Shown here one piece after another: positions 5,255 through 40,071 of a stretch of DNA of 45,631 bases. The notes under the pieces are model-generated. The model made no database searches. It worked only from the letters and a program-made list of their open reading frames with translations, and was not told the origin of the DNA. Origin of the DNA: Puniceicoccales bacterium (lineage in GTDB: Bacteria; Verrucomicrobiota; Verrucomicrobiia; Opitutales; JAIRKQ01); the NCBI GenBank assembly GCA_031283685.1, contig JAITBI010000003.1, positions 1 to 45,631 of the forward strand. The letters are read 5' to 3'. Every line of letters starts with the position of its first letter. Positions within the stretch are counted from its first letter, which is position 1. The translations under genes and the position numbers were made by a program.

Positions 5255-5668
5255 TCACCCAACAAATGGATTGTTGGAAACAATTTGTTCACGAATTGAT
5301 TTGCGTTCTAAGTATAGCGCTGAAATTTCTTCCTCAATAGCTTGCAGTTCATTTTCCGTTGAATAATCTTCTTGTGCAATCAGATCCTGTAATACGGAAA
5401 TGTTATTGGTTATGGGATCAGACATTTCTTTATACAGCTCCCTACGCCTATTTCTAGTAGCTTCATTTGCTATTTCTGTAGGCATCGATGGTGCTTCGGA
5501 CTGTTTGTAGTATATGCCGTCATGGACAGTGTTGTAATATGGAACGATTGATTCTTCCGTTTCTTCGATATGATCAAGCGTTATACCCTTGATCGATGCG
5601 TTGATTGCTAAATCTTTCTGTGATGCACTAAAAGCGACGATATTACCGTCTTTTTTCCCTATATACAT
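5255..5668 (-). CDS. Putative tail fibre assembly/chaperone protein
   Basis: Start MYIGKKDG at 5668, 1 nt after the fibre stop, with GGAG upstream. Helical C-terminus (RRRELYKEMSDP...RKSIREQIVSNNPF) fits fibre-associated chaperones. Confidence 0.55.
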   Translation of the reverse strand: MYIGKKDGNIVAFSASQKDLAINASIKGITLDHIEETEESIVPYYNTVHDGIYYKQSEAPSMPTEIANEATRNRRRELYKEMSDPITNNISVLQDLIAQEDYSTENELQAIEEEISALYLERKSIREQIVSNNPFVG

Positions 5669-5669
5669 T

Positions 5670-7151
5670 TTAAATAGCTCCTTTTGAATAGATGAATCGA
5701 AAAATATTAACCGTAAGATTACTGTTAAACATCTTGAAAAGATACCCATTTGCTACTGGAAATAGTAAAAAAAGGTCCTTGTTCGCAGAATAGGTGGTCG
5801 CTCCGCCGCCATATACTCCCGAACTTGCTCCCGTATTAATTATTACTCTTCCAATTATATACGCATTGGTATTAGAGGTGGTACATTCGACATATATCCA
5901 ACCATCTGCTGGCGCAGTGTAGGTGTCTCCCGATGCACCGTAGGTGATGTCGACACACTGGTTACTTGGCACCCAAGAGTCGGAACTACCACTTCCGCTA
6001 CTATTACCACTAACTGCACTTGCTATCCCTGTTGATGGGTTAACGGTGATGGTTGTTCCGTCCGGCTTAATACCACCAAGCATATCCGCTGTTGCTACAG
6101 GCAGGGCATAGGATTGGTCATCGGCGGAAAGAACTCCATCCGTGATGGTAAGATTGTTTCCGACCTTAACTCCACCAAGAGTATTCGTCGAAGCGGTAGG
6201 CAGGGTATAGGAGGAGCTTTCATTTGCCCACCCAAGTCCATCGATCATAGACTTTAAAATCTGGCCATCGGAACCCTTTCCCAATCTCACCGCCACACCA
6301 GATTCACCTCCGACGATAAGATCCCCTTCGGTTGTCATAGGATTCATCATCCCTTCTACATTCGCAGCTATTGAGGATGAAATTGTTACCTCTGAATCAC
6401 TTACCGCTATGGTAACGTTATTCCCAGCTTTTAACGTTTTAAATTTTAGGTCTGCATCGATTTTCTCCTTAAAAATAGCTGTACCAGTTCCCAGATTACT
6501 TGCCGAAGTAGCTTCTCCTTGTCCAGAAGTTGCGTGTTGATCTACGTAAGTTTTGACAGCCCCCTGGGAAGGAACCATGTAGTCGGATGTTCCGAGGTTG
6601 GTGTTTGTGTCAATGGCTGCTAATTGCATGAATCGATTGTCGCATTCGTTGGACGTGTAATAAATTTTGATTGGATCTGGTGGCGCAGAAAAGTTGCCTC
6701 CTCCTACTTCGAGTATGCGGACTATTCCGGCACACAATGTTATAATTTTTGGAGTTATGTTGCTTGTTATTGCCCAAATCGACAACCAATGATCGCCCGC
6801 AACCACATTGCTTTCGTCCGAAGAAAATGTGATCGCTGCGTGTTGTTTTGTACCATTCTTCCATGTTTCCGATGTCAAAGTATCATCGAAGGACGTACAG
6901 GTTTTCTGCATGAGAGCAGGTGTACTCGCAGATGGGACCTTTCCGTCATCCGTCAATTTACGAATCGCAAGGGAAATGCTTGCATAATTCGATACGCTCC
7001 AAACGTTTTCACCGTTGAAAATACCAATCTCAAACCTAATATCGTTTCCTCGCCAAAATTGCGGAATCTCTCCTCGGAGAACGTCGATTGGATTGTTAAA
7101 ACTTGACGTGTCAGCCTTTATTCTGACGATTATTTCATTCAAATTGTCCAT
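5670..7151 (-). CDS. Tail fibre / receptor-binding protein
   Basis: Gly/Ser/Thr-rich, with fibre-type motifs VPSQGAVKTYVD, NLGTGTAIFK..LKFKTLKAGNNVTI, MTTEGDLIVG..RLGKGSDGQIL, two YxLPxAxxxxLGG(V/I)K repeats and a C-terminal YTAPADGW domain. Confidence 0.75.
   Translation of the reverse strand: MDNLNEIIVRIKADTSSFNNPIDVLRGEIPQFWRGNDIRFEIGIFNGENVWSVSNYASISLAIRKLTDDGKVPSASTPALMQKTCTSFDDTLTSETWKNGTKQHAAITFSSDESNVVAGDHWLSIWAITSNITPKIITLCAGIVRILEVGGGNFSAPPDPIKIYYTSNECDNRFMQLAAIDTNTNLGTSDYMVPSQGAVKTYVDQHATSGQGEATSASNLGTGTAIFKEKIDADLKFKTLKAGNNVTIAVSDSEVTISSSIAANVEGMMNPMTTEGDLIVGGESGVAVRLGKGSDGQILKSMIDGLGWANESSSYTLPTASTNTLGGVKVGNNLTITDGVLSADDQSYALPVATADMLGGIKPDGTTITVNPSTGIASAVSGNSSGSGSSDSWVPSNQCVDITYGASGDTYTAPADGWIYVECTTSNTNAYIIGRVIINTGASSGVYGGGATTYSANKDLFLLFPVANGYLFKMFNSNLTVNIFRFIYSKGAI
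6012..6209 (-). repeat. Two imperfect 33-aa (99-bp) repeats in the fibre gene
   Basis: YTLPTASTNTLGGVKVGNNLTI starts at 6209 and YALPVATADMLGGIKPDGTTITV starts at 6110. Confidence 0.75.
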
Positions 7152-7154
7152 ATT

Positions 7155-7547
7155 TTAATCTTTTGTAAAAATTCCACCTATAATTTTATAGACATGGGAT
7201 GAAACCACCCCTTCACTGAGAGACTGTACTTCACTAATAACAGCATCATTTAATGAATAGGTATCCTGGGATGGTTCTTCGGTGATCACCAAAGACGACG
7301 GTAGGTTTGTCAGTGATGCAGCATGTTGAATGGCATAGGCCTGTGCTTCTTCCACCGAAGGATGTCGTTTGGACACCTTAAATTCCAATGTCGTTTGCTG
7401 ATTGCCCCGGTCAAATCCCCTTACGGCGATGGCTCTCATGGCAGGTGCAATTTGTACCTGTCGAGAATTGTTGATTTTTAGGTCGTAGGGTTGTTCATTG
7501 GCAACGTTTCCCCCGGCTAAAATAATGGTTCCTATTGTAATTTTCAT
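7155..7547 (-). CDS. Hypothetical phage tail/neck protein
   Basis: 130 aa, 3 nt from both neighbours. Function from position only. Confidence 0.6.
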   Translation of the reverse strand: MKITIGTIILAGGNVANEQPYDLKINNSRQVQIAPAMRAIAVRGFDRGNQQTTLEFKVSKRHPSVEEAQAYAIQHAASLTNLPSSLVITEEPSQDTYSLNDAVISEVQSLSEGVVSSHVYKIIGGIFTKD

Positions 7548-7550
7548 CGT

Positions 7551-8015
7551 CTAGATAAATTTTAAATGGCATGGTATGCCAAAACACATGGAAAAGTAGT
7601 TAATGTTATCCTCCCGTGTGACTTTGAAATTTTGTGGTTCCGAAGATAATTCCAGCTGATAGTTTTCGTCTAAAATATCGGGGTGCCACATGTGCAGATG
7701 CTGCATGATGATTTCGGCCAACGATAGTAGACTCTTGCCCAATTCATTCATTGCGGTGTTTTCTATGATTTTTATCTCGATGGTTACGTCATGGAAAACA
7801 GGCCCCGCAACATGGGTACGTGCATAGCTTGGAATGGGAGGCATGAGCAAAATCGCTACGCCGATTCCCGTTTTAACATTTGCCTCAATGACAGAATGTA
7901 GGTCGCTCTGCTTATACGTCAAAATTGGAACATTTCGCAATTCATTCAAACTGAGCAATCGCTTTTCGATCGAATCTTGTAATTTTTCCAAAATTCCTTC
8001 CGTTTTCATGATCAA
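7551..8015 (-). CDS. Putative tail completion/terminator protein (Mu gp37-like position)
   Basis: 154 aa, ATGA overlap with the gp36-like gene; size and position fit. Confidence 0.55.
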   Translation of the reverse strand: MIMKTEGILEKLQDSIEKRLLSLNELRNVPILTYKQSDLHSVIEANVKTGIGVAILLMPPIPSYARTHVAGPVFHDVTIEIKIIENTAMNELGKSLLSLAEIIMQHLHMWHPDILDENYQLELSSEPQNFKVTREDNINYFSMCFGIPCHLKFI

Positions 8016-8485
8016 AAACCTCCCAAAAATTTTTCGGATGCATGGTGTAGCCTACGGTGTACAACCTGACATCCGATATTTGAACTAAAATCACCGATTG
8101 TGATGGCATCGTCTGGAACGGATACGGGAACTTCCCCCTGGGCAATGCGCTTTAGGTAATCCTTCGCATCGGTTGCCAGACGGATTTGGTCAGCCGTCAT
8201 TTTTAAACCAGGCAAGCGGGTCTGTGCGCTTTCCAAAATCAGGCAGCAGGCAAAACTTTTTAAATCGTGAGGAATTTTTGTTCTATCTGCACTTAGCAAA
8301 TTGTGTCTATTCCCGCTGATTTCAGCACGAATGCGGGCCGTAATGTCCCCAATAATTTCGTCGATTGGGTTTGTTTGATCATTCGCCATTTCCAGAGTTT
8401 TCAAAGCGTTCAGCTGCGTTGAGCATAAATAGTCATTGAGATCGGAAATTTGTATAGTTATCCACGTTGCCATAGAATTTTTCAT
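8012..8485 (-). CDS. Head-tail adaptor, Mu gp36/DUF1320-like
   Basis: WITIQISDL start, IPHDLKSFACCL, and AKDYLKRIAQGEVPV matching the gp36-like A..(W/Y)L..IA.G pattern. Follows the capsid gene. Alternative start at 8473. Confidence 0.72.
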   Translation of the reverse strand: MKNSMATWITIQISDLNDYLCSTQLNALKTLEMANDQTNPIDEIIGDITARIRAEISGNRHNLLSADRTKIPHDLKSFACCLILESAQTRLPGLKMTADQIRLATDAKDYLKRIAQGEVPVSVPDDAITIGDFSSNIGCQVVHRRLHHASEKFLGGF

Positions 8486-8500
8486 TGAAGGATTAGGGGG

Positions 8501-8533
8501 TATCCGGGAAGATTTCCAAAATCTTCCCGGATA
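8501..8533. repeat. Perfect 15-bp inverted repeat (stem-loop) between capsid and adaptor genes
   Basis: TATCCGGGAAGATTT-CCA-AAATCTTCCCGGATA. No U-tract follows on the coding (minus) strand. Confidence 0.9.
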
Positions 8534-8558
8534 TGGGTGTAGGTCTATTATGTTGCTG

Positions 8559-9515
8559 TTATGCTGTTGTTACCGTGAGTTTTCTTATGCCTTCCTTTGA
8601 GGTCAAAACCACATTGCTGTAATGTTCGACCGTCAAATCCGTAAACTTGCTATGCTCATCCGCATACACACGAAATGTGCTACCGCCGTCGATGGGGGTG
8701 ACGAACCGTTTAATATTCGCCGGCTCATCTTTCATAATGTCATTCCGGGTATAGAACGCGTATATCTTGTTCCCGAGTAGGTTGGATTTTTCCGCACCAT
8801 TTTGGTAGCGGGCACTCATTACCCGTACTTCGTCGACGAACAGCTTTCTCGCCAGTTCTTCCGGAGTTAGCCCTGCTGCCCGTGTGGCTCCAGCTGTATT
8901 TTGGGCATCGTAGGAATCACTTCTTAGATCCCATGCGCCTTCTCCAATGACGATCCTGTTCGGGCGGATACCGGTGATATCTGCTGCCGCTTCCAATTCG
9001 GCCCGAATGTGAGAATCCGGATTGGCAGAAGATCCCCAGGTGTAGCTGACAGATATTGACTCGGCATTATCTTCCAACGCTGAAATCGCACGGCGTAACT
9101 CATTGCGTAGCAGGCGCTGGAGTAGTAACTGGACATAGCGCTCTCTCCAATCGTCTCCTGCCACATCGTCATGGTCGACCCTGACCGTCAAGCCTTTGTT
9201 GTAGGTCCTAGATGTTATGGAAGTTCCGATGAATTCTACGCGCTTGAAAGATGCACCAATTGATCGGATGTCATCGGTCTCAGACAAAAAGCATTGTTCA
9301 TTGTTTGAGAGCTTGAATTCAAAACGTTTTGCTACGGGGATGACCGGTGCGATGAAATTCAACAGTTCTTCTATTTGTTCTGAATCTTTCCAACCTACTG
9401 TAAATGCGGTTAAGGGTTCCGAATATGTCGACGCGGTGAACCTCGCCTCATTGGCAGCGCAAATTGTGCCGCACTCTTGAAAACCATCATCTTTTGGTAA
9501 AATTTCTATGTTCAT
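8559..9515 (-). CDS. Major capsid protein (putative HK97 fold)
   Basis: 318 aa after the protease and decoration genes. SEPLTAFTVGW and GIRPNRIVIGEGAW resemble lambda-gpE/Mu-like capsids. AAGGA RBS. Confidence 0.75.
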   Translation of the reverse strand: MNIEILPKDDGFQECGTICAANEARFTASTYSEPLTAFTVGWKDSEQIEELLNFIAPVIPVAKRFEFKLSNNEQCFLSETDDIRSIGASFKRVEFIGTSITSRTYNKGLTVRVDHDDVAGDDWRERYVQLLLQRLLRNELRRAISALEDNAESISVSYTWGSSANPDSHIRAELEAAADITGIRPNRIVIGEGAWDLRSDSYDAQNTAGATRAAGLTPEELARKLFVDEVRVMSARYQNGAEKSNLLGNKIYAFYTRNDIMKDEPANIKRFVTPIDGGSTFRVYADEHSKFTDLTVEHYSNVVLTSKEGIRKLTVTTA

Positions 9516-9535
9516 AGGATCCTTTTGGTAAAATT

Positions 9536-9985
9536 TTAACTACCTTTGACTACGTGTTGTTGGGGTACACAGCTCATAAATTCTATGAGCTGGCCATCCA
9601 CCGTTGCCGATGTTAGTGCAATGCCCATCATTGTGTAGGTTTGATCGTTCGCTGTCGGTGTTGGCAGAGGTTTTACTTTGCCATTTCCAGCAGGAACAAC
9701 GATTGCGCCTGCCATAACCGCTGTGCTGGCTACTGCCTGCAGCGTATTAGGGGATCCAAGCAATGCGACGTTGACAATTTCTTTGGACCCTTCCGAAGTA
9801 GGAGCAGTTGCCTCGTCGGTGATAATTCCAATTGGCAAATCGGATACACCACACAGGGCAATGTCGGTCTTTTGTGTTCCAAATTTACCGAGGAGATATT
9901 TGGTTGGGATGGCTTCTTCTGCCTGCTTGGTAACATTACAAGCATGGGTCCCAATGTCGGAATTTGATAATATTAGTTGTGTCAT
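9536..9985 (-). CDS. Capsid decoration/cement protein (DUF2190-like)
   Basis: LPIGI...VNVALLG...AVMAGAIVVPAGNGKV...GIALTSATVDGQLIE pattern, located between protease and capsid genes. Confidence 0.7.
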   Translation of the reverse strand: MTQLILSNSDIGTHACNVTKQAEEAIPTKYLLGKFGTQKTDIALCGVSDLPIGIITDEATAPTSEGSKEIVNVALLGSPNTLQAVASTAVMAGAIVVPAGNGKVKPLPTPTANDQTYTMMGIALTSATVDGQLIEFMSCVPQQHVVKGS

Positions 9986-10001
9986 AATTTCCTAGTTAAG
10001 G

Positions 10002-10793
10002 TTAAAAGTTTTTATTGAATAATGCGGGATTGTTGCGTTTGACCGCATTCCACGCGTCATTGTATTTCTCTGAAAATTTTTGCATGCGTTCGAAGACAAG
10101 TTCCAAAATCCTTTCGCAATTTGATTTATTAAAAATTGGTTGTTTCAAATCTTCCGTTTGCGAAACCGTGTGGAGGATTATCTGGGACGGTAGAATTAAA
10201 ATGTCTTCATCCACGGAATCTGTCACCTGTTGCCCAGGCTGATCTTCTTCACTTTCCAGAAAAATATTTTCGGAGCTGACATCACGGCAATTCTCTTGGC
10301 CATCGATTGCAAAGTTTTCCCTGTTATTATCATCTGGTGAAGCTATTTGCCCATTGGCTTTTTCAACTTTTGACACGTGATCGCATCTGATATTTGGATG
10401 ATTGGTTAACCCGACTGACAATAGGCGTTTGGGAGACAACCTGCCGTCCTGTGTTGGAGTCGTCAACCACCGGGGAGACAGATACCTAAGGATGCCATTT
10501 TTAAACAACTCCTGGCCAATGTCTGTCCATTTTACCAGAATCCACAGGGCATTATCTTCCACTTTCATATTTTCTATGCGTCCATAGACCCTATTATTTT
10601 TCGATCCGAACTCCGGGTCATCTGGATGGCCGATAAAGATTGGAAGCCCTTGAAATCTGCGCATTAGGCGACTTCGCAGAGAATGGAAAGAATCGATAAT
10701 TCTTTCGGCAGACTGGGAGTCCAAAAGTTGTGTCCCTTTGGGGTGGAAATATTCGCCACAATTTACTAATTTCAACCATTCAACGTGCATCAT
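10002..10793 (-). CDS. Mu-like prohead protease with C-terminal scaffold region
   Basis: IFIGHPD, LVKWT..GQEL...YLSPRW and LLSVGLTNHPNI match Mu gpI-type proteases. GGAGG precedes tandem ATGs at 10793/10790, overlapping the portal stop (ORF track starts at 10823). Confidence 0.82.
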   Translation of the reverse strand: MMHVEWLKLVNCGEYFHPKGTQLLDSQSAERIIDSFHSLRSRLMRRFQGLPIFIGHPDDPEFGSKNNRVYGRIENMKVEDNALWILVKWTDIGQELFKNGILRYLSPRWLTTPTQDGRLSPKRLLSVGLTNHPNIRCDHVSKVEKANGQIASPDDNNRENFAIDGQENCRDVSSENIFLESEEDQPGQQVTDSVDEDILILPSQIILHTVSQTEDLKQPIFNKSNCERILELVFERMQKFSEKYNDAWNAVKRNNPALFNKNF

Positions 10794-12069
10794 TGCCTCC
10801 TTCAATTTCGCCGTTACTTTCATACTGTGCCATGGAAGTTAGCATCTGCTCACCCTCATTTGGCGTTGCCAGGTTAAACCTTTCCCGAATATCATTTATC
10901 GAGATTGGAACTCCCATTTTGTATAATTCACGATACAAATTCAGTTCATCGGCTACATTTCGCTTAACATTTGGGATAAACTTTATATACGCCTTTACCG
11001 GAACATCGCCGAACAGATATTTTACAACAAATCTGTCGACCTGCGTGTTAAGAGCTTCCGAAATCATTCCTGCGTCATCCTCTTCCAGGATCGCCGTTTC
11101 ATCGGCTTGTAGAGATGCACCTGCTCCGCTTTCCCTCGATAACGTTGCCAGATCGGAACCTCTCCATAGTGCAGAAATCGCACGGTCCATCCGGTCTATT
11201 AATTTTGGATAGGGCAATTCCCCTTTCGTCGATAGATCTATCGCTTCGATGTTAGTACCCTTCGACATCAATGCACTAAATTCAGCCCCAAAATCTTCCA
11301 CGGCATCGCGGGCCGCTTCCCATTGTTCTGTATTTGGAACCGCATCGGTAACACCTTTTACCCCCGGCATACCATTTCGTTCACAATAAACCAGCCAGTC
11401 GCGTAGCGGCAGATGTTTAAATAGGTATGCAATGGAACAGGCTTCCATCAGACCATCTCCTGCCGTCACTAACCATGCTCCTGCTTCCAAGGGAATACCG
11501 GACGTGGCGCCTTCGTTCGTCAAAAACTTCAATTTACCATCGTGGTTTTCAAAAAACCACAGTGGAACAAATCGGAATGTGGCTGTTAGTAACGTCGAAG
11601 GCGCCATAGGTTTCAGCTTTGGAGAATCTTTTTCCGATGCCGAAATTTCATGGGGTTCGAAAATTATTTCATGGATGGCATACTTTTTGCCAATGGCATC
11701 CATCATTTGACGTACCAGAAGGGATATCCCTCCGAGCTCATTGCTATCGCACGCACTTGTTGCCGATAAATTGTTATAGAAATATTCCAGCGCGATTTTC
11801 TGTTCTCTGGCCAACTCAGAATCATCGACCGATAAAATTTCCCAATGTAGTCGAGCGATCGATTTCTTTCTCTTACTTGCCACTCCTTGAATGACGTCAT
11901 CCCGACGCTCAATGGCATCCCACGTTAGAGCAGCGGCTTTCAAATACCCCGTAGAAAAGGCATCCAACATCTGGGACAATGAGTCCGGGGTCAGGGTTTT
12001 GATTGGATTGAAGTGCGCCCGCATGGAATTTTTCACGCGAATTTCTGAAATTTGTGATACTGTTTTCAT
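10780..12069 (-). CDS. Portal protein, Mu gp29/DUF935-like
   Basis: IERRDDVIQGVASKRKKSIARLHWEI, MMDAIGKKYAIHEI, DWLVYCERNGMPGVKG and ISALWRGSDLAT; follows TerL. Confidence 0.88.
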   Translation of the reverse strand: MKTVSQISEIRVKNSMRAHFNPIKTLTPDSLSQMLDAFSTGYLKAAALTWDAIERRDDVIQGVASKRKKSIARLHWEILSVDDSELAREQKIALEYFYNNLSATSACDSNELGGISLLVRQMMDAIGKKYAIHEIIFEPHEISASEKDSPKLKPMAPSTLLTATFRFVPLWFFENHDGKLKFLTNEGATSGIPLEAGAWLVTAGDGLMEACSIAYLFKHLPLRDWLVYCERNGMPGVKGVTDAVPNTEQWEAARDAVEDFGAEFSALMSKGTNIEAIDLSTKGELPYPKLIDRMDRAISALWRGSDLATLSRESGAGASLQADETAILEEDDAGMISEALNTQVDRFVVKYLFGDVPVKAYIKFIPNVKRNVADELNLYRELYKMGVPISINDIRERFNLATPNEGEQMLTSMAQYESNGEIEGGNDAR

Positions 12070-13454
12070 AAAAATTCTTCTCTCCTTGTTTTTCGTTCAA
12101 CTTTTTCGAAATATGGTACTTGCTGATGCCTACAAGCATTTGCGGCATGTATGGCCAGTGCCAATGCCCAAAACCTATCGGCATGTCCGTTTTTCCCTCT
12201 ATCCCCTGCGAACCTGATATTTCCCGCGAATGTCGTTTCTCTCCTAACGGATCTCAGGTCTGCCCGAATAAAATCATCGCCGGGAATTTTTATCAATTTT
12301 CCCTCAAATACTTCTCGCAGCTGATAGGCTAATTCTTCCTTCGTTCTATTGGTAAACGTTACCCCTTCCACGCGATATTTCCAAAAATTTTCACTGGCAC
12401 GTTCGAAAAACTGGCGCCCGATCCCGGTTTGATCAATGCATATCCTCTTCAAATTTTTTATTTCAAAGAATTTTTGTAGCCTTTCTTCTTGCTCGGAGAA
12501 TGGAGCATTTTGCATGGTCAAAACTTTTCTTGTGCATAGGATATCGTTTCGGTTTTCAAGCAACCAAAACACCGTAAAATCGTGACTGCGAGCGACATCA
12601 ATTCCAAGAAAGCAATCATCGGTTCCCTTGGAAAAATCGTGCAATTCCCAAGAATTCTGTTCATTGGACTGATATTCACAGGCGGCTATCATGTTACTCG
12701 CTATGAATGCCGAACGGTCATCGGCTGGAACACACATGTATTCCTGCAAAAACGATTCCTCGTCGGGACAAGAATTTTTCACGGCGTCGAAATATTCCGA
12801 ATCCGACATTTGGTTCCGTTCATCGGATGCAGGTAGCCGAGTCTTTAACTTATTTAGTAAACCATGTTCGAGGGCATCCTGCAATGTTATACGATGATAG
12901 GAAAAATTTCCACGATTTTCCCCATTGCGTATTTCGCATATCAGTTTATTAAAAAAATTGTTTGATCCACGGTGGGTTGATAAAATTTCTAGCTGTCCGC
13001 CCCAGGTGATGCCTGGTAGTGCGATTGTATACAAATTCTTCTGGTCACCGTGCAATGCGAATTCATCGAGTATCCGCGAGCCTCTTTTCCCAGCCTGTGC
13101 ATTAATATTCGACGACAACGAATTGATTGACGTGCCATTGGAGAACCCTAGGGATGTTGAAGAATCAGTTCTTTCTTCTAAAATTTGCCTGTGGTTGAAG
13201 AAGTTACAGGCTGGAGACAGAATGTTCGCAAACTTTTTGCAATCGTCTATGAACAATTTCGCCTGCAGCTCATCCCGAGATGTTACCCAGGAATCATAAT
13301 TGTTTTGCCTAGAGACGTGCCGTCTAACGGTGCCATATGCCGTTGCCAGTGTCATCCCAATTTGGCGTGATTTTTCTAAAATTTTCAGCCGTGAATTATC
13401 TAAAATCCAGTTGACCTGGTATGGTAGAAAAAAGCTCTGTGCGATACCCTTCAT
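12066..13454 (-). CDS. Terminase large subunit, Mu gp28-like
   Basis: FLPYQ..W, Walker A EKSRQIGMT, Walker B ILDEFA, coupling motif LST, nuclease motifs GIDVARSHDFTV, IDQTGIG and GHADRFWALALA. Confidence 0.92.
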   Translation of the reverse strand: MKGIAQSFFLPYQVNWILDNSRLKILEKSRQIGMTLATAYGTVRRHVSRQNNYDSWVTSRDELQAKLFIDDCKKFANILSPACNFFNHRQILEERTDSSTSLGFSNGTSINSLSSNINAQAGKRGSRILDEFALHGDQKNLYTIALPGITWGGQLEILSTHRGSNNFFNKLICEIRNGENRGNFSYHRITLQDALEHGLLNKLKTRLPASDERNQMSDSEYFDAVKNSCPDEESFLQEYMCVPADDRSAFIASNMIAACEYQSNEQNSWELHDFSKGTDDCFLGIDVARSHDFTVFWLLENRNDILCTRKVLTMQNAPFSEQEERLQKFFEIKNLKRICIDQTGIGRQFFERASENFWKYRVEGVTFTNRTKEELAYQLREVFEGKLIKIPGDDFIRADLRSVRRETTFAGNIRFAGDRGKNGHADRFWALALAIHAANACRHQQVPYFEKVERKTRREEFL

Positions 13455-13840
13455 AGTAGTTGCAATTGCTCCTCCACAGTTTTGACGATATCACTTGGCA
13501 ATTTGCCTTTTTGCAAATTTTCTCGCATGGCTTGTAGTTCCTGTCTTTCATCGTCGAGATCAGCAGATTTCAGCCGTGCAATTTTTTTAAATTCGATGTC
13601 CTGAATTTTTTGGTGGCTTGCCGACAACTTTTGTATGACACAGGAAATATCCTTGAGCTCTCCAACGGAACCATCATCGCTTCCACAGATGGAGTCGAAC
13701 AGCATTTCCCAGGCACGGGAAAGAGATGCCATCGCAGTTTCCGTAGGCAATTCAAGGCCGATAAGGATTTCCGATGTGCGTGCTTTTGCGAACTTTATCT
13801 GGGCAAGGTGATTTTTAAAACTGTCATTTCCATCACACAT
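13451..13840 (-). CDS. Putative terminase small subunit-like helical protein (Mu gp27 position)
   Basis: 129 aa, helical/coiled-coil, ATGA-coupled to TerL. Assignment mostly positional. Confidence 0.5.
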   Translation of the reverse strand: MCDGNDSFKNHLAQIKFAKARTSEILIGLELPTETAMASLSRAWEMLFDSICGSDDGSVGELKDISCVIQKLSASHQKIQDIEFKKIARLKSADLDDERQELQAMRENLQKGKLPSDIVKTVEEQLQLL

Positions 13841-14187
13841 TATTCATCTGTATCAAAATTTTTAAGTGGATAATTATCCTTTAATCTATACCTGTCTCCG
13901 AATCCACATTCACTGATCTTTACAATACTTCCAGAATCTACCAAACCAGATATGCTAGCGATGACATGTTCCTTTGGACAATTTTTACAGGAACAAGAAA
14001 TTCCATGAAAAATTATATCGAAGGGTAAACTGGCAGGAGATGCTGCGATTAGCTGCAACACTATTAAATTTCGAATGTTTGAACGGTATAGGTCCGATTC
14101 ACTACCTCCGTCGATCATCTCAAAACCATCGAATCTTTCCGTTTCTAGTGAGTACTCGTTTGCCTTCGCCATACAATCTGTGGACAC
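13840..14187 (-). CDS. Putative winged-helix protein (Mu gp26-like position)
   Basis: IRNLIVLQLIAAS...HVIASISGLVDSGSIVKI....RYRL fits a wHTH pattern; TAATG overlap with the next gene. Start uncertain. Confidence 0.5.
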   Translation of the reverse strand: MSTDCMAKANEYSLETERFDGFEMIDGGSESDLYRSNIRNLIVLQLIAASPASLPFDIIFHGISCSCKNCPKEHVIASISGLVDSGSIVKISECGFGDRYRLKDNYPLKNFDTDE

Positions 14188-18820: not shown

Positions 18821-19014
18821 GCATAATCTCTACCCTTGTGAAAATAAAAATCTTTCCTATTAATCATTGACCGTACTAAAATCGGGCCATGCCCATTTGT
18901 TCTAATCCAAGGGAGCAATTGGATTACTGCACAAGCAATACTCTGGAAGAGTTTTATGTCATTTCTTTTTGTCGTTTTTAAAACGGCGATTTTTACGGTA
19001 TCCGTGTCTATCAT
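18811..19014 (-). CDS. Small hypothetical protein
   Basis: 67 aa. Exactly fills the gap, with an ATGA overlap with the upstream gene and a 10-nt overlap with lptD. No family recognised. Confidence 0.4.
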   Translation of the reverse strand: MIDTDTVKIAVLKTTKRNDIKLFQSIACAVIQLLPWIRTNGHGPILVRSMINRKDFYFHKGRDYACY

Positions 19015-19550
19015 TTGTCTCTGAACAGGGTTTGTAAAGCTTGAGATCCCTTGTCTCCAACTTTAGAGGCGACATCAAGAACAATCGACATTTGTGTTAC
19101 TTCGTATTGTATACGCATCAAATCCTGTTGCGATAAATCCGGTTTTTGAGCTAGTTCCGCTGTCACGTTTGACATGTGGTCTAATTGCCGCTTGACTGAA
19201 GACATAAAGTCGGATAGCCGATTCTGATATTCTGCTACACCGGAAAATTGATCTATTTTCCCCTCCAACCCATGTACGACGCCTGGCATTGACTGTCCGA
19301 CATTTCTAATGGAATTAGAAAGGTCGGGATTAATATTGCTTAAAGCGTTTGCGGTTTGATCCAAACGATTGGTTACAGAATCAATGTTTATGTCAGTGTT
19401 GTTAAGTGCAGCATTGAATTTTGCCACATCACTTTGATTGATACCTGTAGATAGTGAATCAGAGAATTTCTGGGGATCCATTTGGTCCTCCGCCATGATT
19501 TTCTCTATTTGTTTCCGCAATGTTTCATCGACTATAGCTACTTGCTCCAT
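19011..19550 (-). CDS. Type III secretion inner-rod-like protein (SctI/YscI/HrpB2 family)
   Basis: C-terminus LSQQDLMRIQYEVTQMSIVLDVASKVGDKGSQALQTLFRDK matches the YscI/HrpB C-terminal pattern; Gln/Asp/Ser-rich N-terminus. Confidence 0.62.
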   Translation of the reverse strand: MEQVAIVDETLRKQIEKIMAEDQMDPQKFSDSLSTGINQSDVAKFNAALNNTDINIDSVTNRLDQTANALSNINPDLSNSIRNVGQSMPGVVHGLEGKIDQFSGVAEYQNRLSDFMSSVKRQLDHMSNVTAELAQKPDLSQQDLMRIQYEVTQMSIVLDVASKVGDKGSQALQTLFRDK

Positions 19551-25119: not shown

Positions 25120-27150
25120 ATGGAGGGAGGCCCCATAAATATTGCCTTTGTTTTCGACGACAAATTTTTCAATCTATTCAAAGTCACGGCATATTCGATT
25201 GCGAAAAATACAAAGTCAAACTTGGCAATTTACATCATCGATTGCGGAATTTCGGAAACCCATCGAATGGAAATTGGCAAATTTCAAAAACAGTTACCCT
25301 GTGTGGTTGATATTTTTTGCAAAGAGCCGAAGAAGTTCGAAGTCTTCGAAAAGTGTCCTATTCCTGCCCATTTTTCATCCGCTGTTTTTTACAGATTGGC
25401 CATTGGTAAAACATTTCCTCACCTCACGCGCGTAGTATATTTAGACTGTGATGTTATCGTGGATGGGGATATCAAAGAACTATGGGATGTCGACCTTGGA
25501 AATAGGCCATTTGGCGCTTTGAATGACGAAACAAATTTCTTTTTGCCTAAAGATATCGAACGCCGTAAAAAACAAGCAGGTATCCCACCTGAACACACGT
25601 ATATGAGCTCAGGCGTACTGCTAATCGATCTTAAAAAGTTTGAAAACATGTGTGTGTTTGAGCGTGTGTTGAAATTTGTCGAACATTGTGAGATATCGCT
25701 GGCATGTCCAGAGCAAGACGCTATGAACATATGTCTCGACGAAAATGAACATCTACCGATAAATCCAAGATTTAATTTTACACCATTTGCTCCACAGGCA
25801 AAACGGTGTTTTAAAAAATTTGGTCCCCCCTTGATTATCCATTTTTCGTGCGGAAAGCCGTGGATTTTTAATAAAAAGTTTATCAATATATTAAATCGAC
25901 TCCATTTGTTTAACTATGAGGTTGGATTTATTAAAAAATATTGGAAATATTCCGATGGGGTCGATAAACACACATTTTCATCGAGGGACATGGGGCCTAC
26001 GGTTTTGTTTTTTTACAAACGTGTGTTTGGCAAACTTGAATATTTTGTTGCAAAAAAAATTCGTAACAAAATCATAAGGGGGCTTCGCAACATTTTAGGT
26101 AAAAGTGAGAAGTGTGTTCAGTGGGAGGGTACACAACCTCGCCTCGCCGATGAAGTTAATAAAAAGAGAATAAATATGATTGAAACCATAGATATCGCTT
26201 TTGTTTTCGACGATAAGTTTTCGGATTTATTCAGAGTTGCCGCCTATTCCATCGCTCAAAATACAAAGGCGAATCTTACGATTTATGTTATCGACTGCGG
26301 AATTTCGGAAATCAACAGGGAAAAAGTTCTCCAACTGAAAGAAAAGTGTGAAAACATTTTGTCCATAAAAATTGGCATGCCGGAACGGGTTGACGTTCTG
26401 GAAAATTTCCCAACTGAGGAACGTTTTAATTCCGTCGTTTTCTATAGGCTAGCGATCCCGAAGGTATTCCCGGAACTTAGCCGGGTGATATATTTGGACT
26501 GTGATATTGTTGCAGTTGGTGACATTTCTGAGCTTTGGAATGAAGATTTGAATGATTGTCCTTTTGGCGCAGTCGAAGAAGATGGTAATTTTTCCGATGA
26601 AAAAATCAGGGCGGATAAATTGGCATATTTGAAATTTCCGGAAGAAAACCGTTATTACAATTCCGGTGTTCTTTTGATTGACTCCCAAAAGTTTGAAGAA
26701 TCCCAAATTTTTGAAAGGGTGATTGAACAAGTAAAACAGACAAAGATTTTTTTCCCATGTCCGGAACAAGATGCCATGAACATATGTCTTCGCAACGACG
26801 AACATCTGTCGTTGCACCCGAAATATAATTTTATCCCATTTGCATCGTTGTCGAAAAAATGCTTTGCCAGCATTGGGGAAAATGTAGTCCTCATCGAATA
26901 TGCCTGCGTAAAACCGTGGGAAATGAATAGACCAACGGTCAAACTGTTCCATTACCTTGGCCTTTGCCGCTACTCAACTTTTATGCTCCTAAAATTTTGG
27001 CATTATGCCGATCAATTGGGAGACGTAAGTCCTAGTAATAAAAATCCTTTTCCCACGCTCAAATTTTTTTATAAACGACTATTTCAACCAATAGGACGGT
27101 TTTTCTCAAAAGCTATAGCAAATGTTAGAAAATCTCGTACGTGCAAATAA
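25120..27150 (+). CDS. Glycosyltransferase family 8 protein with two fused GT8 domains
   Basis: IAFVFDDKF, FYRL, YLDCD, (Y/M)(N/S)SGVLLID, PEQDAMN and KPW each occur twice. The second domain begins MIETIDIAF at 26176. Confidence 0.88.
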   Translation: MEGGPINIAFVFDDKFFNLFKVTAYSIAKNTKSNLAIYIIDCGISETHRMEIGKFQKQLPCVVDIFCKEPKKFEVFEKCPIPAHFSSAVFYRLAIGKTFPHLTRVVYLDCDVIVDGDIKELWDVDLGNRPFGALNDETNFFLPKDIERRKKQAGIPPEHTYMSSGVLLIDLKKFENMCVFERVLKFVEHCEISLACPEQDAMNICLDENEHLPINPRFNFTPFAPQAKRCFKKFGPPLIIHFSCGKPWIFNKKFINILNRLHLFNYEVGFIKKYWKYSDGVDKHTFSSRDMGPTVLFFYKRVFGKLEYFVAKKIRNKIIRGLRNILGKSEKCVQWEGTQPRLADEVNKKRINMIETIDIAFVFDDKFSDLFRVAAYSIAQNTKANLTIYVIDCGISEINREKVLQLKEKCENILSIKIGMPERVDVLENFPTEERFNSVVFYRLAIPKVFPELSRVIYLDCDIVAVGDISELWNEDLNDCPFGAVEEDGNFSDEKIRADKLAYLKFPEENRYYNSGVLLIDSQKFEESQIFERVIEQVKQTKIFFPCPEQDAMNICLRNDEHLSLHPKYNFIPFASLSKKCFASIGENVVLIEYACVKPWEMNRPTVKLFHYLGLCRYSTFMLLKFWHYADQLGDVSPSNKNPFPTLKFFYKRLFQPIGRFFSKAIANVRKSRTCK

Positions 27151-27154
27151 AGAC

Positions 27155-28141
27155 ATGACTGAAACAATAGACATAGCATTTGTTTTCGACGATAAGTTCT
27201 CCGACTTATTTAAAGTTGCGATGTATTCAATTGCCAAAAATACAAAATCGAACCTGGCGGTACACATCGTCGACTGTGGAATACCCGAAGAAAGCAAAGG
27301 TCTAATTCGAAAGTTTATATCGGAATTTAAAAACATTTCGTCGACAGAGTTCAAGATTCCCAAACGCATAGAAGCTTTGGAAAATTATACTATTCCAGCG
27401 CATTTTTCCACGGCCATATTTTATCGACTGGCGATTCCAAAGGTGTTTCCAGAACTTAACCGGGTGATATATTTGGATTGTGACACCATCGCCGTTGGTG
27501 ACATTTCTGAGCTTTGGAATGAAGATTTGAATGGTCGTCCTTTCGGTGCAGTCGAGGAAGATGGCAATTTTTTTAACGAAAAAACCAAGTGGCGGAGGAT
27601 GAAAGAAATCAATTTCCATGAAGATAAACACTATTACAACTCCGGTATTTTGCTAATTGATACAAAACAATTTGAAAAATCTCAAATCTTTGAAAGGGTA
27701 ATCGAGTTTGTAAAAAATACCGATCTTCGCCTGTTAAGCCCTGAGCAGGACGCAATGAACCTATGTCTTGCCGATGACGAACATATGACTTTGAGCCCAA
27801 AATATAATTTCATCCCCTTTGCATCATTCTCGAAAGAATGCCTTAAAAAGGTTAAAAATCCTACGATAATGCACTACGCCGGTAAAAAACCATGGGAAAT
27901 GAATAAAAAAGTTATCAGGTTTGCCGCATTGTGTGGCATGAAAAAGTACCACATGGCCATGATGTTAAAGTACTGGGAATATGCAGATTACGTGGATAAA
28001 AAAAAGTTTTCCAACAGAAATATTTTTCATACTTTGAAATTTCTTTATAAATGCTTTTTCCAGCCCATTGAACAATTCATATCGAGAAAATGTTGCCATT
28101 CCATAAAATCTCTTTTTGAACAGCAAAGGAAGAAGGTTTAA
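27155..28141 (+). CDS. Glycosyltransferase family 8 protein
   Basis: Same GT8 motifs (YLDCD, YNSGILLID, EQDAMN, HYAGKKPW). Start MTETIDIAF at 27155 by comparison with the paralogues. Confidence 0.9.
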   Translation: MTETIDIAFVFDDKFSDLFKVAMYSIAKNTKSNLAVHIVDCGIPEESKGLIRKFISEFKNISSTEFKIPKRIEALENYTIPAHFSTAIFYRLAIPKVFPELNRVIYLDCDTIAVGDISELWNEDLNGRPFGAVEEDGNFFNEKTKWRRMKEINFHEDKHYYNSGILLIDTKQFEKSQIFERVIEFVKNTDLRLLSPEQDAMNLCLADDEHMTLSPKYNFIPFASFSKECLKKVKNPTIMHYAGKKPWEMNKKVIRFAALCGMKKYHMAMMLKYWEYADYVDKKKFSNRNIFHTLKFLYKCFFQPIEQFISRKCCHSIKSLFEQQRKKV

Positions 28142-33770: not shown

Positions 33771-36700
33771 TTATTTATTTATTTCGCTGAGCTTGGCCAA
33801 AGCATTCATCACGGCATCGGTACTATCAGCGTAATTCGATTGTTGAAAATTATTCAGCCCCTGGTGATTCTCACAGGAATCAACCATATTCATGCCGGAG
33901 AAAAAGCCCGCAGACTTAACATCATAAATCCCTTTGATCCCTTTTCCCCAAGCAAGGACAAACATATCCGATAGGGTTTTCAGATTTGGACTTCCGAGGA
34001 ATAATCTCAGGGATTGAGATTGATCGATCCATTTTTGTCGCCGGGCAGCTCCTTCGATAATTGCTTCATTGTCAATCATGTAGGCGGTGGAAAACATTTC
34101 TCGTATGGATTCAGGAATTTCATCGATGGCGGCTAACTCTCCTTCAAAATATCGAATTTGCTTATGGACTGCCTTATTCCAAATGCCAGACTTTTTCAAA
34201 ATCCTTACTAATTCCGGGGAAATAATCATCATTTCGTAGTTATCGTCCAAACGCTTAGTGAAAACATTTTTCGTTGCCGGGGATAATTCGGGATAGCATC
34301 CCAAAAGGCGGGCAATTTTCCTCGTTGGAGAGAATGCATTTAGATACGCATTTCTTATGCCATTTTCCTTTATCTTATCTCGCAGAACGTCCCAGGATAG
34401 CGTGCCAGCGTTTTTATCCTTGGCAAAGTCAAATGGTAGCTTCCCTTTTGCCCATTCCGAAGATTCAAATGCTTGGCAGGCTCCATATTTTTTCGCTAGC
34501 TCGCATGACTCATTGATCGTTTCGTAGGAAATTATTTCCGCACATTCCTCGCCAAACCTAATGGCTTCTTCGGAATTAAATGAAAGATTTTTGTTGTAGA
34601 ATGCATTTTGTAATCCCATCATGCCTAACCCTATCGCGCGGTACTTTTTGGCAAATGTTTCAGCAGCCTGCGAAGGGAAAAAATTAGCGTCTATCATCGC
34701 GTCCAACGTGCGGGTCGCGACCGCTATTGTATGGCGTAAGACATCTTTATCGAGGGAACCATCCGAGGTTAAATGTTTGTTGATGTCCAATGCTCCTGTG
34801 TTGCACACAGCGGTTTCGTTGTAGGCCGTATTCATAACGTGTTCCAGACACAACCCTGTTCCATGAATTGTTCCATTTTTGCACATATTCGCCCGATTGC
34901 ACGTATCCTTAAATGCAATCTTTGGATATCCTGCCTCGAAAATTCGTTGCATGACTTTTTGCCAAACCTCTCGACACGTTACCATTTTACCGGAAGCTTT
35001 ACCTTCCATGACACACCGTTCCAGTTCTTCATATTTTTTATCAAATCCATCGCCGTACAATTCATGTAAACCTCTGGCATCTTCTGAATTGAATAACGTC
35101 CAATCGGCATCCTGCTGTAAGCGATGCATGAAAATATTCGGAATCCATAGTACTGTTCCGAGGGTATCATCAGGCATGTTTCCATTCACATATCTCTTGC
35201 GATAATCTATAAACTCCATTATGTCGCTGTGCCAAATTTCTAAATACGCCGCTCCACGACCTCTACGGCGTTCGATCCCCTGATTTGCAATGGCCAATTG
35301 GTGCTGGTGAAGTTGTAAAAATGGTATTACACCGGGAGCTCGTCCCCTAGTTCCCGAAATTTTTGCACCTTTTTCGCGGACATTGGTCCAAGAACCCGCA
35401 ATACCTCCTCCCCACTTGGCGATGAAAGCATTGTCGGAAATTCCGCGCGTCATAATGCTTTGCATGTCATCCTCGACATGAAAAACGTAGCTCGACATCA
35501 TCTGAGCTTTCGGTGTTCCAGCGTAGTATAAGGTAGGGGTTGCCAGGCAAAACTTTCTGTCTCGCATCAATTTGTAGCATTCAATGACGTCGCCTTCGGC
35601 GTGCTCTTTTGCAAGAAATGCCCCCATCGCGACACGCATCCAAAGCATCTGGGGGGTTTCTAAAATTCGATTATCAAAATCCCGCATGAAATAGTGCTCT
35701 TTTAAACTTTGCAAAGCTATGGCATCGAATTCGCGGTCATAGGTAATATCTAGGGTACGAGAAAGCTGTTCAAGATCATACTTGAACATGTCCTTGTGAA
35801 GTAGGTTATTCCCAACGGCTGTTTTGACATATTTCACAAAAGCAATTGCCTGTTTTTCGTTCAAACATTCTAGGCTATCAGTGGTACAATTCCAATCGAA
35901 TATATCCTCATATAAATAAAGTAATTGTATCCTAGCTGCAAATACTGCTAAGACGGGGTCTTTTTCTATTAGCCGCTGGGCATTTTTGATGATATAATTT
36001 TTTAGTTCCGAAACGCTAACTTCCGACGAAATCCCTTCCTGTAAAGATGACAATATTTCATCGAATGTTAGGTGCGAATCCAGTCCCGCATTCGCAAATG
36101 CTATTCGTTTGTGTAATTCCGATCCATCCCACAAAAAGCTATCATCATTGGCATTCTTTACCACGATAATAGGCCCCTGATCCTGGGTTACTGTATATTC
36201 TTTCTCAATGTCTGACAGCTCTCTCAATCTTGCCCGTTCGGCCCTGTATAGGATATATGCTTCGGCAATCTTATATTCCCCCTGACGCATCAATTCTTCC
36301 TGCACGCAATCTTGAACATTTTCAATGTGAATGAACGATAACCCCTCGTCTAATATATTTTTTGTCACTGCCCGAGAGATTTTATCGGCCCGCTCTGGGC
36401 TTTGGTATTGGGAAATAAATGCCAATTCCACCGCATGTTTTATTTTTTCGATGTTCCATGGTACGACACTGCCATCTCTTCGGATTAAGCTTAATTTGCG
36501 ACTTTCCTTAACCCTCCTATAGTATTCATTCTCAAACCTACACTTCGCCACAAAGGCGTGGGCCATCTCCCTCCTGTTATTTCTTACTAAAATTTCTTCA
36601 ATGGCGTCATTCACAAGATCTTGGCTAGGCGGACAGGTTTCTCGAAGGTTGATACAGCGACAAACTTGTCTGGTCAACGAAACGACCAATTGTTTGTTTG

Positions 36701-36929
36701 CATCGTCGAAAATATCGGACCGCCCATTAACTAGGGAAATGTCCACAACCACCTCTCCAATCTTATCCGCAATTTCTCCAATATTGTAGTACTCACAAAC
36801 ACACTCGCTATCATTTTCGACGAGACGTTTCCAGTCGAATCGCGGCTTTTCTTCCATGGGGGTGCCAATCACACGTTTTAACTCCAAATTTTTTTGAATA
36901 CTCATTTTTTGCTCCGTATGGGGTAACAT
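33771..36929 (-). CDS. nrdA: Class Ia ribonucleotide reductase alpha subunit homologue with multiple ATP cones; catalytic residues degenerate
   Basis: ATP cone (IRRDGSVVPWNIEKI...AEAYILYR), ETPQMLWMRVAMG, ATPTL, ETAVCN, GLGMMGL, GIRNA and RQKWIDQSQSL. See findings for the missing residues. Confidence 0.85.
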   Translation of the reverse strand: MLPHTEQKMSIQKNLELKRVIGTPMEEKPRFDWKRLVENDSECVCEYYNIGEIADKIGEVVVDISLVNGRSDIFDDANKQLVVSLTRQVCRCINLRETCPPSQDLVNDAIEEILVRNNRREMAHAFVAKCRFENEYYRRVKESRKLSLIRRDGSVVPWNIEKIKHAVELAFISQYQSPERADKISRAVTKNILDEGLSFIHIENVQDCVQEELMRQGEYKIAEAYILYRAERARLRELSDIEKEYTVTQDQGPIIVVKNANDDSFLWDGSELHKRIAFANAGLDSHLTFDEILSSLQEGISSEVSVSELKNYIIKNAQRLIEKDPVLAVFAARIQLLYLYEDIFDWNCTTDSLECLNEKQAIAFVKYVKTAVGNNLLHKDMFKYDLEQLSRTLDITYDREFDAIALQSLKEHYFMRDFDNRILETPQMLWMRVAMGAFLAKEHAEGDVIECYKLMRDRKFCLATPTLYYAGTPKAQMMSSYVFHVEDDMQSIMTRGISDNAFIAKWGGGIAGSWTNVREKGAKISGTRGRAPGVIPFLQLHQHQLAIANQGIERRRGRGAAYLEIWHSDIMEFIDYRKRYVNGNMPDDTLGTVLWIPNIFMHRLQQDADWTLFNSEDARGLHELYGDGFDKKYEELERCVMEGKASGKMVTCREVWQKVMQRIFEAGYPKIAFKDTCNRANMCKNGTIHGTGLCLEHVMNTAYNETAVCNTGALDINKHLTSDGSLDKDVLRHTIAVATRTLDAMIDANFFPSQAAETFAKKYRAIGLGMMGLQNAFYNKNLSFNSEEAIRFGEECAEIISYETINESCELAKKYGACQAFESSEWAKGKLPFDFAKDKNAGTLSWDVLRDKIKENGIRNAYLNAFSPTRKIARLLGCYPELSPATKNVFTKRLDDNYEMMIISPELVRILKKSGIWNKAVHKQIRYFEGELAAIDEIPESIREMFSTAYMIDNEAIIEGAARRQKWIDQSQSLRLFLGSPNLKTLSDMFVLAWGKGIKGIYDVKSAGFFSGMNMVDSCENHQGLNNFQQSNYADSTDAVMNALAKLSEINK

Positions 36930-38724: not shown

Positions 38725-39282
38725 TCATGCCCCTATTATAAATTCAGGCGTTCCTTTGGAGGTTGAATTCGTTGAAGAAGAAGTTCCTCCAACGTTATTT
38801 TCACCCGATGCCTCTTCTCCCTTTGGCAGCGTCCCTTGTGTGTAGAGGACCATTTTTTGCTTCCAACGATCTACTTCATCCAAGAATACTTTAAAAAATT
38901 CTTCGAATTTACCTATATCCATAAACCTCAACGGAAATTGGTATCCAATGGCCGCATTGTTGCTTTCCGCATTATACGATAGCGTCATTCCTTTACTTTC
39001 CTCTGGATCGTTGTTAATTCGAAGCAAGTAACGCAATATCGATCCGGCGTTGGTTTCCGGAATTTGGCCGATTTCGGCGATGAATATCATAGAGTCGCGC
39101 TTATTTTCATGTTTTAAGTGAATAAGTGTTCCTTGATCTACGTCTAAACAGCAATATCCAGATGAATCAACCTGTAATCCAGACAAATTTATTCTATTGG
39201 CAAATTCGTGGAGAATGTCTGTAAAAGTATCTATTGGCATAAATGTTAGAGACATACTTAATGGATATACACATTTAGTCAA
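38725..39282 (-). CDS. Type III secretion class I chaperone, CesT/SycE-like
   Basis: Small and acidic, with the pattern F..ILHEFANRINLSGLQVDSSGYCCLDVD...LLRINN...FEEFFKVFLDEVDRW. True start likely 39255 or 39240. Confidence 0.75.
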   Translation of the reverse strand: MTKCVYPLSMSLTFMPIDTFTDILHEFANRINLSGLQVDSSGYCCLDVDQGTLIHLKHENKRDSMIFIAEIGQIPETNAGSILRYLLRINNDPEESKGMTLSYNAESNNAAIGYQFPLRFMDIGKFEEFFKVFLDEVDRWKQKMVLYTQGTLPKGEEASGENNVGGTSSSTNSTSKGTPEFIIGA

Positions 39283-39360: not shown

Positions 39361-40071
39361 CTAATTTGCCGCTCGAATTTTGAACTCTTCGACGTGAGAC
39401 TTGCTAAAATTAATTATGTCCTGCAAAACAATTCTATTGCGGGGAGCAAAGATAGAATCACCGTCGTTTAAATTTTTATTCATTGCATGTTCGGGAATAA
39501 ATTCTTGAAGGACAAATCGTTTTGCTCCGGTTAACTGGAATATTATACTCCTTATGTCATAGGACGTATGGAATGCTGGAACGACTGTTGTGCGAAATTC
39601 ATAATCCACCTCACTGTTTTTAATCAAATCTATGGATTGTTTTATCTTGTCCATGCTAACAGAAACGTTGGCAATTTCGGTATACCTGTCAAACCTATGC
39701 TTAATATCCATGGCAACGTAGTCCAACAGTTTTGCCCTGTATAGGCTATCTAAAATTTCAGGCCGCGAGCCGTTAGTATCCAATTTTGTTAAAAAACCAA
39801 GCTCCTTTATTTTTTTCAAAAAGTCTTCCAAGTCGCCTTGCAAGGTTGGTTCTCCACCGGACATTACTACGGCTTCGATTTTTCCTTTTTTGGCGTTTAA
39901 AAAATTAAATATTTCGCGTTCCTCCATTGGAGTCCCAAATTTTTCAGGTAAAACCAAAGTCTCGTTATGGCAAAATTGGCAACAGAAGTTGCATCCCTGC
40001 GTAAATAAAACACAGGAGATTTTGCCAGGGAAATCAATTAGAGAAACTTTTTGTATGCCACCTATTTTCAT
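39361..40071 (-). CDS. nrdG: Anaerobic ribonucleoside-triphosphate reductase activating protein (radical SAM)
   Basis: IGGIQKVSLIDFPG, GCNFCCQFCHN (CxxxCxxC), SGGEPTLQ, KLDTNGS and YEFRTT. Confidence 0.88.
   Translation of the reverse strand: MKIGGIQKVSLIDFPGKISCVLFTQGCNFCCQFCHNETLVLPEKFGTPMEEREIFNFLNAKKGKIEAVVMSGGEPTLQGDLEDFLKKIKELGFLTKLDTNGSRPEILDSLYRAKLLDYVAMDIKHRFDRYTEIANVSVSMDKIKQSIDLIKNSEVDYEFRTTVVPAFHTSYDIRSIIFQLTGAKRFVLQEFIPEHAMNKNLNDGDSIFAPRNRIVLQDIINFSKSHVEEFKIRAAN

Follow-up and report, generated by a model that had tools for sequence, protein, structure and literature searches.

Class I ribonucleotide reductases (RNRs) of the NrdAz type, represented by Pseudomonas aeruginosa NrdA (PDB ID: 5im3) and the canonical NrdA proteins of Opitutales, are related to a protein encoded on the minus strand at positions 33771–36929 of the window, which here denotes the whole analyzed stretch of 45,631 nucleotides (contig JAITBI010000003.1) from a Puniceicoccales bacterium. 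The NrdAz α subunits and this protein have a common fold, the same domain order, an intact ATP cone, and the Asp and Arg residues of the specificity site, and canonical relatives from the same order are approximately 42% identical to it. Unlike NrdAz α subunits, however, the protein is devoid of equivalents of C225, Y731, and the CxxC motif, has an altered phosphate loop, lies on a long branch, and has no cognate nrdB that we could find. We refer to the gene as nrdA* and to class I NrdA homologues with substituted catalytic residues as dead NrdAs. They constitute a real and conserved family, undescribed as far as we have searched. By default, an RNR α subunit is annotated as an enzyme, and both NCBI and JGI give relatives of the nrdA* protein the name "ribonucleoside-diphosphate reductase subunit alpha".

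Retention of an RNR large subunit after loss of activity is likewise described for the betaherpesvirus R1 homologues, namely human cytomegalovirus UL45, murine cytomegalovirus M45, and the human herpesvirus 6B RNR (PMC5469499, PMC11772975). The targets of those viral proteins lie in host immune signaling, whereas dead NrdA comes from bacteria, has retained an ATP cone, and appears to co-vary with an RNR of another class. Activity control resides on a polypeptide other than the catalytic one in Leeuwenhoekiella blandensis NrdB (PMC5794259; PDB ID: 5olk), although both chains there belong to one functional class I enzyme, whereas the sensor proposed here would be a dead class I α subunit serving a class III enzyme. 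In the class III NrdDs of Streptococcus thermophilus (PMC12662201) and Prevotella copri (PMC11226230), the position of the cone governs activity via the NxN flap, and we propose that the signal in the present system ends at this flap. These cones bind nucleotides themselves, the Lys and Arg residues of the S. thermophilus hairpin contacting the nucleotide phosphates (PMC12662201), whereas the NrdD considered here has lost the phosphate-contacting hairpin. The repressor NrdR is also an ATP-cone nucleotide sensor controlling the supply of deoxyribonucleoside triphosphates (dNTPs), but it is a DNA-binding protein with a zinc ribbon, whereas dead NrdA gave no match to a DNA-binding domain in Pfam. 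Our literature searches, which covered few subscription journals, found no published description of a bacterial dead NrdA family (the excerpts of PMC9669993 and PMC9531940 mention none) or of regulation shared between two RNR classes.

The nrdA* frame encodes 1052 amino acids from the first ATG with zero internal stops. The real start is probably Met9 at position 36905, because GGAG precedes it and the first ATG is absent in the relative G008. Pfam recognized the barrel (PF02867), the all-α domain (PF00317), and a single ATP cone at residues 149–233 (PF03477; E = 4e-23), in keeping with the preliminary description of this DNA, which had reported an unbroken frame with at least one clear cone. 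The protein scored above the cut-off of TIGR02506, and its score against TIGR02504 (NrdJ) was 285 bits, below the cut-off of 400. An identity as class II NrdJ was rejected on this score, the loss of the C225 equivalent, and the nesting of the protein within class I Opitutales NrdAs in the tree. The best solved relative was P. aeruginosa NrdA 5im3, both by sequence (phmmer E = 2e-160) and by the fold of an AlphaFold2 (AF2) model (Foldseek E = 9e-60), the model having a mean predicted local distance difference test score of 77.5 and low confidence at residues 479–560.

The register of the catalytic motifs was set by HMMER alignment to P. aeruginosa NrdA and human RRM1, using the Escherichia coli residue numbers and roles that we take to apply to these positions. 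In both HMMER and MAFFT alignments, without local gaps, the motifs QMMSSY (starting at residue 476), TGLCLE (691–696), SPTRKIA (867), and KGIYD (999–1003) were in register with QLSSCY, SNLCxE, APTATI, and KTxYY, respectively, which ruled out compensating residues or misalignment as the explanation of the substitutions. Ser480 (codon AGC, 35490–35492) replaces the proximal redox cysteine C225, and the second member of that pair, C462, is kept as Cys709. The finger loop Gly692-Leu-Cys694-Leu-Glu696 with Cys709 occupies 34803–34856; the thiyl-loop residues C439 and E441 are kept as Cys694 and Glu696, and the N437 position is Gly692. SPTRK (34317–34331) replaces APTAT of the substrate phosphate loop, and Tyr1002-Asp1003 (33921–33926) replaces the radical-relay tyrosine pair, with Asp1003 at the position of Y731. 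The C-terminal tail (33774–33905) has no CxxC re-reduction pair, the last cysteine of the protein being residue 1019. These losses, together with the retention of Cys694, Glu696, and Cys709, had been proposed in the preliminary description, and all of them hold for the window's protein. Thus, nrdA* is an unbroken class I nrdA whose product lacks counterparts of C225, Y731, and the C-terminal cysteines; by sequence criteria, this product is presumably a catalytically inactive pseudoenzyme.

Dead NrdA was found in 39 genomes of 0.7–1.3 Mb belonging to five small-genome families of one order, designated f1 (the family of the window's genome), f19, f36, f4, and f20. The altered gene occurred in all 23 genomes of f1, with 57–94% identity to the window's protein, and in 9/14 genomes of f19 (genera g22, 0/4; g25, 0/1). 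In f4 it was confined to genus g49 (3/3), genus g6 having none (0/14); three f36 genomes and one f20 genome (G054) completed the carriers. The frames were open in all 39 carriers, some ending at contig ends. Retention of a 3-kb dead copy in genomes of this size indicates an important non-catalytic role.

The absence of an adjacent nrdB, noted in the preliminary description, extends to the genome assembly: the assembly (782 kb, 89% complete) gave no nrdB match, and phmmer over its 3840 six-frame open reading frames (ORFs) found neither a second nrdA nor nrdJ. The nrdD gene (L078:5231–7351 on contig C6, outside the window, minus strand) is intact, with the SMCCRL, RIVGYL, and zinc motifs present, and the class III activase gene nrdG lies within the window (39361–40071, minus strand; TIGR02495 above cut-off). 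These genes support the earlier proposal that dNTPs would be made by the class III system. NrdD was present in 23/23 genomes of f1, 13/14 of f19, 17/17 of f4, 2/3 of f36, and in G054 (1/1 for f20), whereas nrdB was found in 3/23 f1 genomes, always beside a separate nrdA, in 0/14 f19 genomes, and in 0/12 f4 genomes. In these three f1 genomes (L079, G017:C2; L080, G003:C12; and G021:C71), the protein of the separate nrdAB pair was 25–32% identical to the dead protein and the dead copy was kept; the second NrdAs of G003 and G017 had intact motifs, and the G003 pair differed from the G017/G021 pair in length and gene order. Across 221 genomes of the order, 165 had an NrdA match and 138 had nrdB, and among the NrdA matches retrieved from genomes without an nrdB match, a set that left aside G124 and G175, that of G183 (83% complete) had canonical motifs and all the others were dead.

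A mixture-model tree of NrdA proteins, made by a quick search and containing long branches, placed the dead proteins of f1, f19, f36, and f4 in one clade (Shimodaira–Hasegawa-like approximate likelihood ratio test support of 99), with those of G054, P0125, P0130, and P0171 just outside it. P0143, P0150, P0165, and P0168 fell among other NrdAz lineages, which argues that catalytic loss occurred more than once. The grouping of all dead proteins by FastTree was distrusted because of the long branches, and the mixture-model tree separates them. With P0201 and P0253 added, these nine P-numbered proteins make up an additional set of full-length NrdA homologues in which catalytic residues are missing. 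No substituted NrdA was seen in 80 genome loci (76 complete, 4 partial) or in 80 metagenome loci (71 complete, 10 partial ORFs). Among the matches listed for P0143 (119) and P0150 (115 newly listed), there was no substitution beyond the query itself, and the searches made gave no close dead relatives of P0143, P0150, P0165, or P0168 and no genomic context for any of the nine.

Conservation was counted over 45 aligned dead sequences (24 from f1; 41 from the four core families f1, f19, f36, and f4) and 18 canonical relatives from the order. Ser at position 480 and Asp or Glu at position 1003 were found in 24/24 f1 sequences, against Cys and Tyr in 18/18 canonical relatives, so that chance or sequencing error does not account for the substitutions; the second relay Tyr was missing from all 45 dead sequences. 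The change of N437 to Gly, by contrast, stood for the window's protein and failed as a family-wide loss, since Asn is kept in 10/24 f1 sequences (Gly in 14/24). Asp487 and Arg518, in the specificity-site segment (35376–35471), were invariant in the 41 core-family sequences; we take them to be equivalents of human D226 and R256, with a presumed role at the specificity site.

The N-terminal part of the protein contains three cone-like regions of different quality. Region 1 (approximately residues 49–135; 36525–36785), recognized from AF2 helices and alignments and not called by Pfam, has no nucleotide-binding hairpin and is missing from the f19, f36, and f20 copies. Cone 2 (residues 145–236; 36222–36497) is intact, is the most constrained region of nrdA*, and by alignment corresponds to the first, N-terminal cone in P. 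aeruginosa NrdA, the only one binding nucleotide in that enzyme (PMC5794259). Cone 3 (residues 253–340; 35910–36173) is degenerate, with a weak PF03477 match (E = 0.09) and support from alignment. In cone 2, 15 of the 24 columns invariant among canonical relatives were kept in all four core families and none was lost in all four, and in residues 861–1008, 13 of the 65 such columns were kept and 21 were lost in all four.

The ratio of nonsynonymous to synonymous substitution rates (dN/dS) showed that dead nrdA is under strong purifying selection and is not decaying. Over 45 pairs from 10 genomes of genus g1, the median was 0.064 (range, 0.049–0.090) for dead nrdA and 0.046 for nrdD. The lowest values were those of cone 2 (0.023), residues 476–570 (0.032; specificity-site segment included), and residues 861–1008 (0.033), and the highest was that of the tail (0.18). 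That nrdA became redundant once nrdB was lost and is in an early stage of decay, a case for which the preliminary description had looked to a dN/dS near 1 and frameshifted relatives, would suit the 90 canonical-invariant columns lost in all four core families and the absence of the gene from two clades. We nevertheless regard it as hardly credible and, provided that the sampled genomes are representative, rule it out on the comparison with nrdD: dN/dS was 0.05–0.09 at a dS of about 0.5–1.2, the frames were open in the 39 carriers, and the motifs that carry the substitutions do not vary within a family. Together with the lack of an nrdB match, this selection supports the earlier suggestion that nrdA* may be a retained pseudoenzyme.

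The preliminary description had left the role of the pseudoenzyme between a nucleotide sensor, a scaffold, and different thiyl chemistry. That the f1 protein keeps a modified active site for different thiyl, redox, or metal chemistry would accommodate Cys694, Glu696, Cys709, new Cys683 and Cys878, and Arg870 and Lys871, all invariant in 24/24 f1 sequences, as well as the loop-2 residues Gln550 and Arg555, kept in f1 and lost in f36 and g49. We consider such chemistry improbable even in f1: nothing that could supply a radical was found (nrdB gave no match, and the relay tyrosine is lost), and the thiyl Cys occurs in 1/21 of the dead sequences that arose outside f1 from the common dead ancestor. 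As the function shared by the family it is disfavored, because the C439 equivalent, present in 24/24 f1 sequences, is lost in 20/21 dead sequences elsewhere. Arg870 and Lys871 are invariant in f1 only. With His697, Cys683, and Cys878 they are new invariant f1 residues near the former active site, and they possibly form a remodeled ligand or metal site.

The sensor option was favored, and the apparent co-evolution of dead NrdA with the truncated ATP cone in NrdD allowed it to be stated more precisely. In the NrdDs of f1, f19, f36, and f4, the KRDG hairpin of the enzyme's own cone is lost and the four helices are kept in the AF2 model, with PF03477 matching at profile positions 16–88 only; the hairpin is kept in the NrdDs of G024, G026, G028, G032, and G054. 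Co-variation was examined in 33 carriers and 19 non-carriers of dead NrdA, excluding G054 and any genome whose NrdD N-terminus could not be used. Two residues in helix 2 of the remnant cone, R49 and W56, were present in 33/33 carriers, whereas R49 occurred in 1/19 and W56 in 0/19 non-carriers. Both are derived, as neither occurs in intact NrdD cones. Dead NrdA was absent from all 19 non-carriers in a search whose positive control succeeded. The non-carriers form two clades that are separate in the NrdD tree, each adjoining carriers.

Among the 319 NrdD columns invariant in carriers, eight were lost in g6 (14 genomes) and four in g22 plus g25 (5 genomes), and the columns lost in both were R49 and W56 (expected overlap, 0.10; hypergeometric P = 0.003). 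Over 28 clade pairs, joint losses occurred in four, comprising this pair and three pairs from the same family. In a leave-one-out analysis, each non-carrier clade lost 3/10 invariant cone columns and 1–5/308 core columns, and carrier clades lost 0–2 cone columns. Relative to core dN, helix-2 dN was 4.3- and 5.3-fold in the two clades without dead NrdA, compared with 0–2.6-fold in six carrier clades. NrdG, taken as a control, lost 0/38 invariant columns. The co-variation signal is one of losses concentrated in the cone. In addition, nrdD lies directly upstream of dead nrdA in 6/7 genomes of genus g3, the seventh being broken by contig ends, and occupies the slot held by nrdB in most canonical relatives.

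On these grounds we tentatively prefer the reading that dead NrdA is a detached ATP/dATP-sensing regulatory subunit that binds the truncated cone of NrdD, which may well be correct. The alpha subunit would have been kept as an ATP/dATP sensor after nrdB was lost, with cone 2 still binding ATP or dATP. Dead NrdA would dock on the R49/W56 face of the remnant cone, and a nucleotide-dependent change in it would reposition that cone and hence the adjoining NxN flap (ENSN, residues 124–127), such that NrdD would be switched off at high dATP. In its wider form, which we find conceivable and put forward with reserve, this would be a cross-class RNR in which a class I alpha subunit became a detached allosteric subunit of a class III enzyme after aerobic reduction was abandoned, reading ATP/dATP, perhaps also the other dNTPs through the retained specificity site, and gating NrdD via a nucleotide-blind remnant cone. 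Regulation of NrdD in trans, if true, would be common to two RNR classes and would provide a natural test of ATP-cone control of class III enzymes, an open question according to PMC12662201. The positions of R49/W56 in NrdD and of Arg150/Arg151 make the proposed regulation directly testable.

Several observations weigh against this assignment. The signal consists of two loss events, and the motif had been noticed ahead of its test. When the 10 invariant cone columns are taken by themselves, two sets of three would share two columns with a probability of about 0.18 by hand calculation, which is unremarkable. W45, also in helix 2, is kept in 8/14 g6 genomes without dead NrdA, and the non-carrier genomes are all incomplete assemblies (64–95%). 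Dead NrdA is not essential for NrdD, since 19 genomes have a truncated cone without it, and G054 pairs dead NrdA with an NrdD whose cone is intact and has neither R49 nor W56. Genus g3 is the only one in which nrdD adjoins dead nrdA. The dN/dS of dead nrdA was higher in f19 (0.08–0.23), and a partner acting through its cone only leaves the retention of approximately 870 residues unexplained. Co-regulation of the two genes by NrdR was also rejected, because NrdR-box-like sites precede most nrdD genes and not dead nrdA: in a scan with an NrdR-box consensus against a background of 300 random 280-mers, sites with three or fewer mismatches were found upstream of 16/23 nrdD genes compared with 17/300 random sequences, and the best matches upstream of 23 dead nrdA genes had 3–7 mismatches, as in the background. 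Strict complementation, in which dead NrdA would be present if and only if the NrdD cone is truncated, was excluded by the 19 truncated non-carriers and the intact cone of G054.

The self-sufficient NrdD cone of G054 and the lack of an NrdR-box-like site upstream of dead nrdA would fit better if dead NrdA were a nucleotide sensor, buffer, or scaffold acting on a target other than NrdD, with the changes at R49 and W56 reflecting parallel relaxation or another lost partner; varied gene neighborhoods and the dead NrdAs outside the clade point the same way. We judge this explanation possible and on the whole doubtful, as the joint NrdD loss is confined to two residues in one helix of the remnant cone, with none in NrdG, and nrdD adjoins dead nrdA in 6/7 g3 genomes. 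The same co-evolution signal would be expected if dead NrdA bound NrdD independently of nucleotides to stabilize it or to assist its assembly, for instance by shielding the glycyl-radical form, and such a role agrees with the conservation seen throughout the barrel and in residues 861–1008 (dN/dS, 0.033). Binding of this kind is unlikely, however, in that the nucleotide-contact motif of cone 2 is the best-kept part across families.

Two observations on nrdD concern genes outside the window. The f1 nrdD upstream regions contain two NrdR-box-like palindromes approximately 31 bases apart, and none was seen upstream of dead nrdA or nrdG. The NrdD of L068 (G030:C17) is apparently devoid of any ATP cone, in a genome with canonical nrdAB.

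The nrdA* gene is flanked downstream by murF and sufD and upstream by an antiporter gene, a gene of the CesT family, and nrdG. The genome also contains nrdR and ATP/ADP translocase genes, its best DNA match was a termite gut metagenome, possibly the sample of origin, with no RNA data set among the matches listed, and the bacterium is presumably a host-associated anaerobe. The translocase and the nearby CesT-family chaperone gene (38725–39282, minus strand) suggest host-associated life and, with the precedent of the inactive herpesvirus R1 homologues (PMC5469499, PMC11772975), could be accommodated by a host-directed moonlighting protein. Such a role seems quite improbable to us, as a rapidly evolving effector would hardly show such strong conservation over five families together with a retained nucleotide cone, and the CesT gene was not seen in the neighborhood of G012.

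Motif and promoter scans over the whole window gave chance-level results only. A gene at 19011–19550 (minus strand) had a weak match, below cut-off, to a type III secretion inner-rod protein. A cluster at 5255–14187 (minus strand) encodes a terminase large subunit, a Mu-type portal, and a Mu-like protease along with several ORFs without a Pfam match, which in a 0.8-Mb genome suggests a prophage remnant or a gene-transfer-agent-like unit. Two adjoining genes for glycosyltransferases of family GT8 are located at 25120–28141 (plus strand), the first of which carries two GT8 domains.

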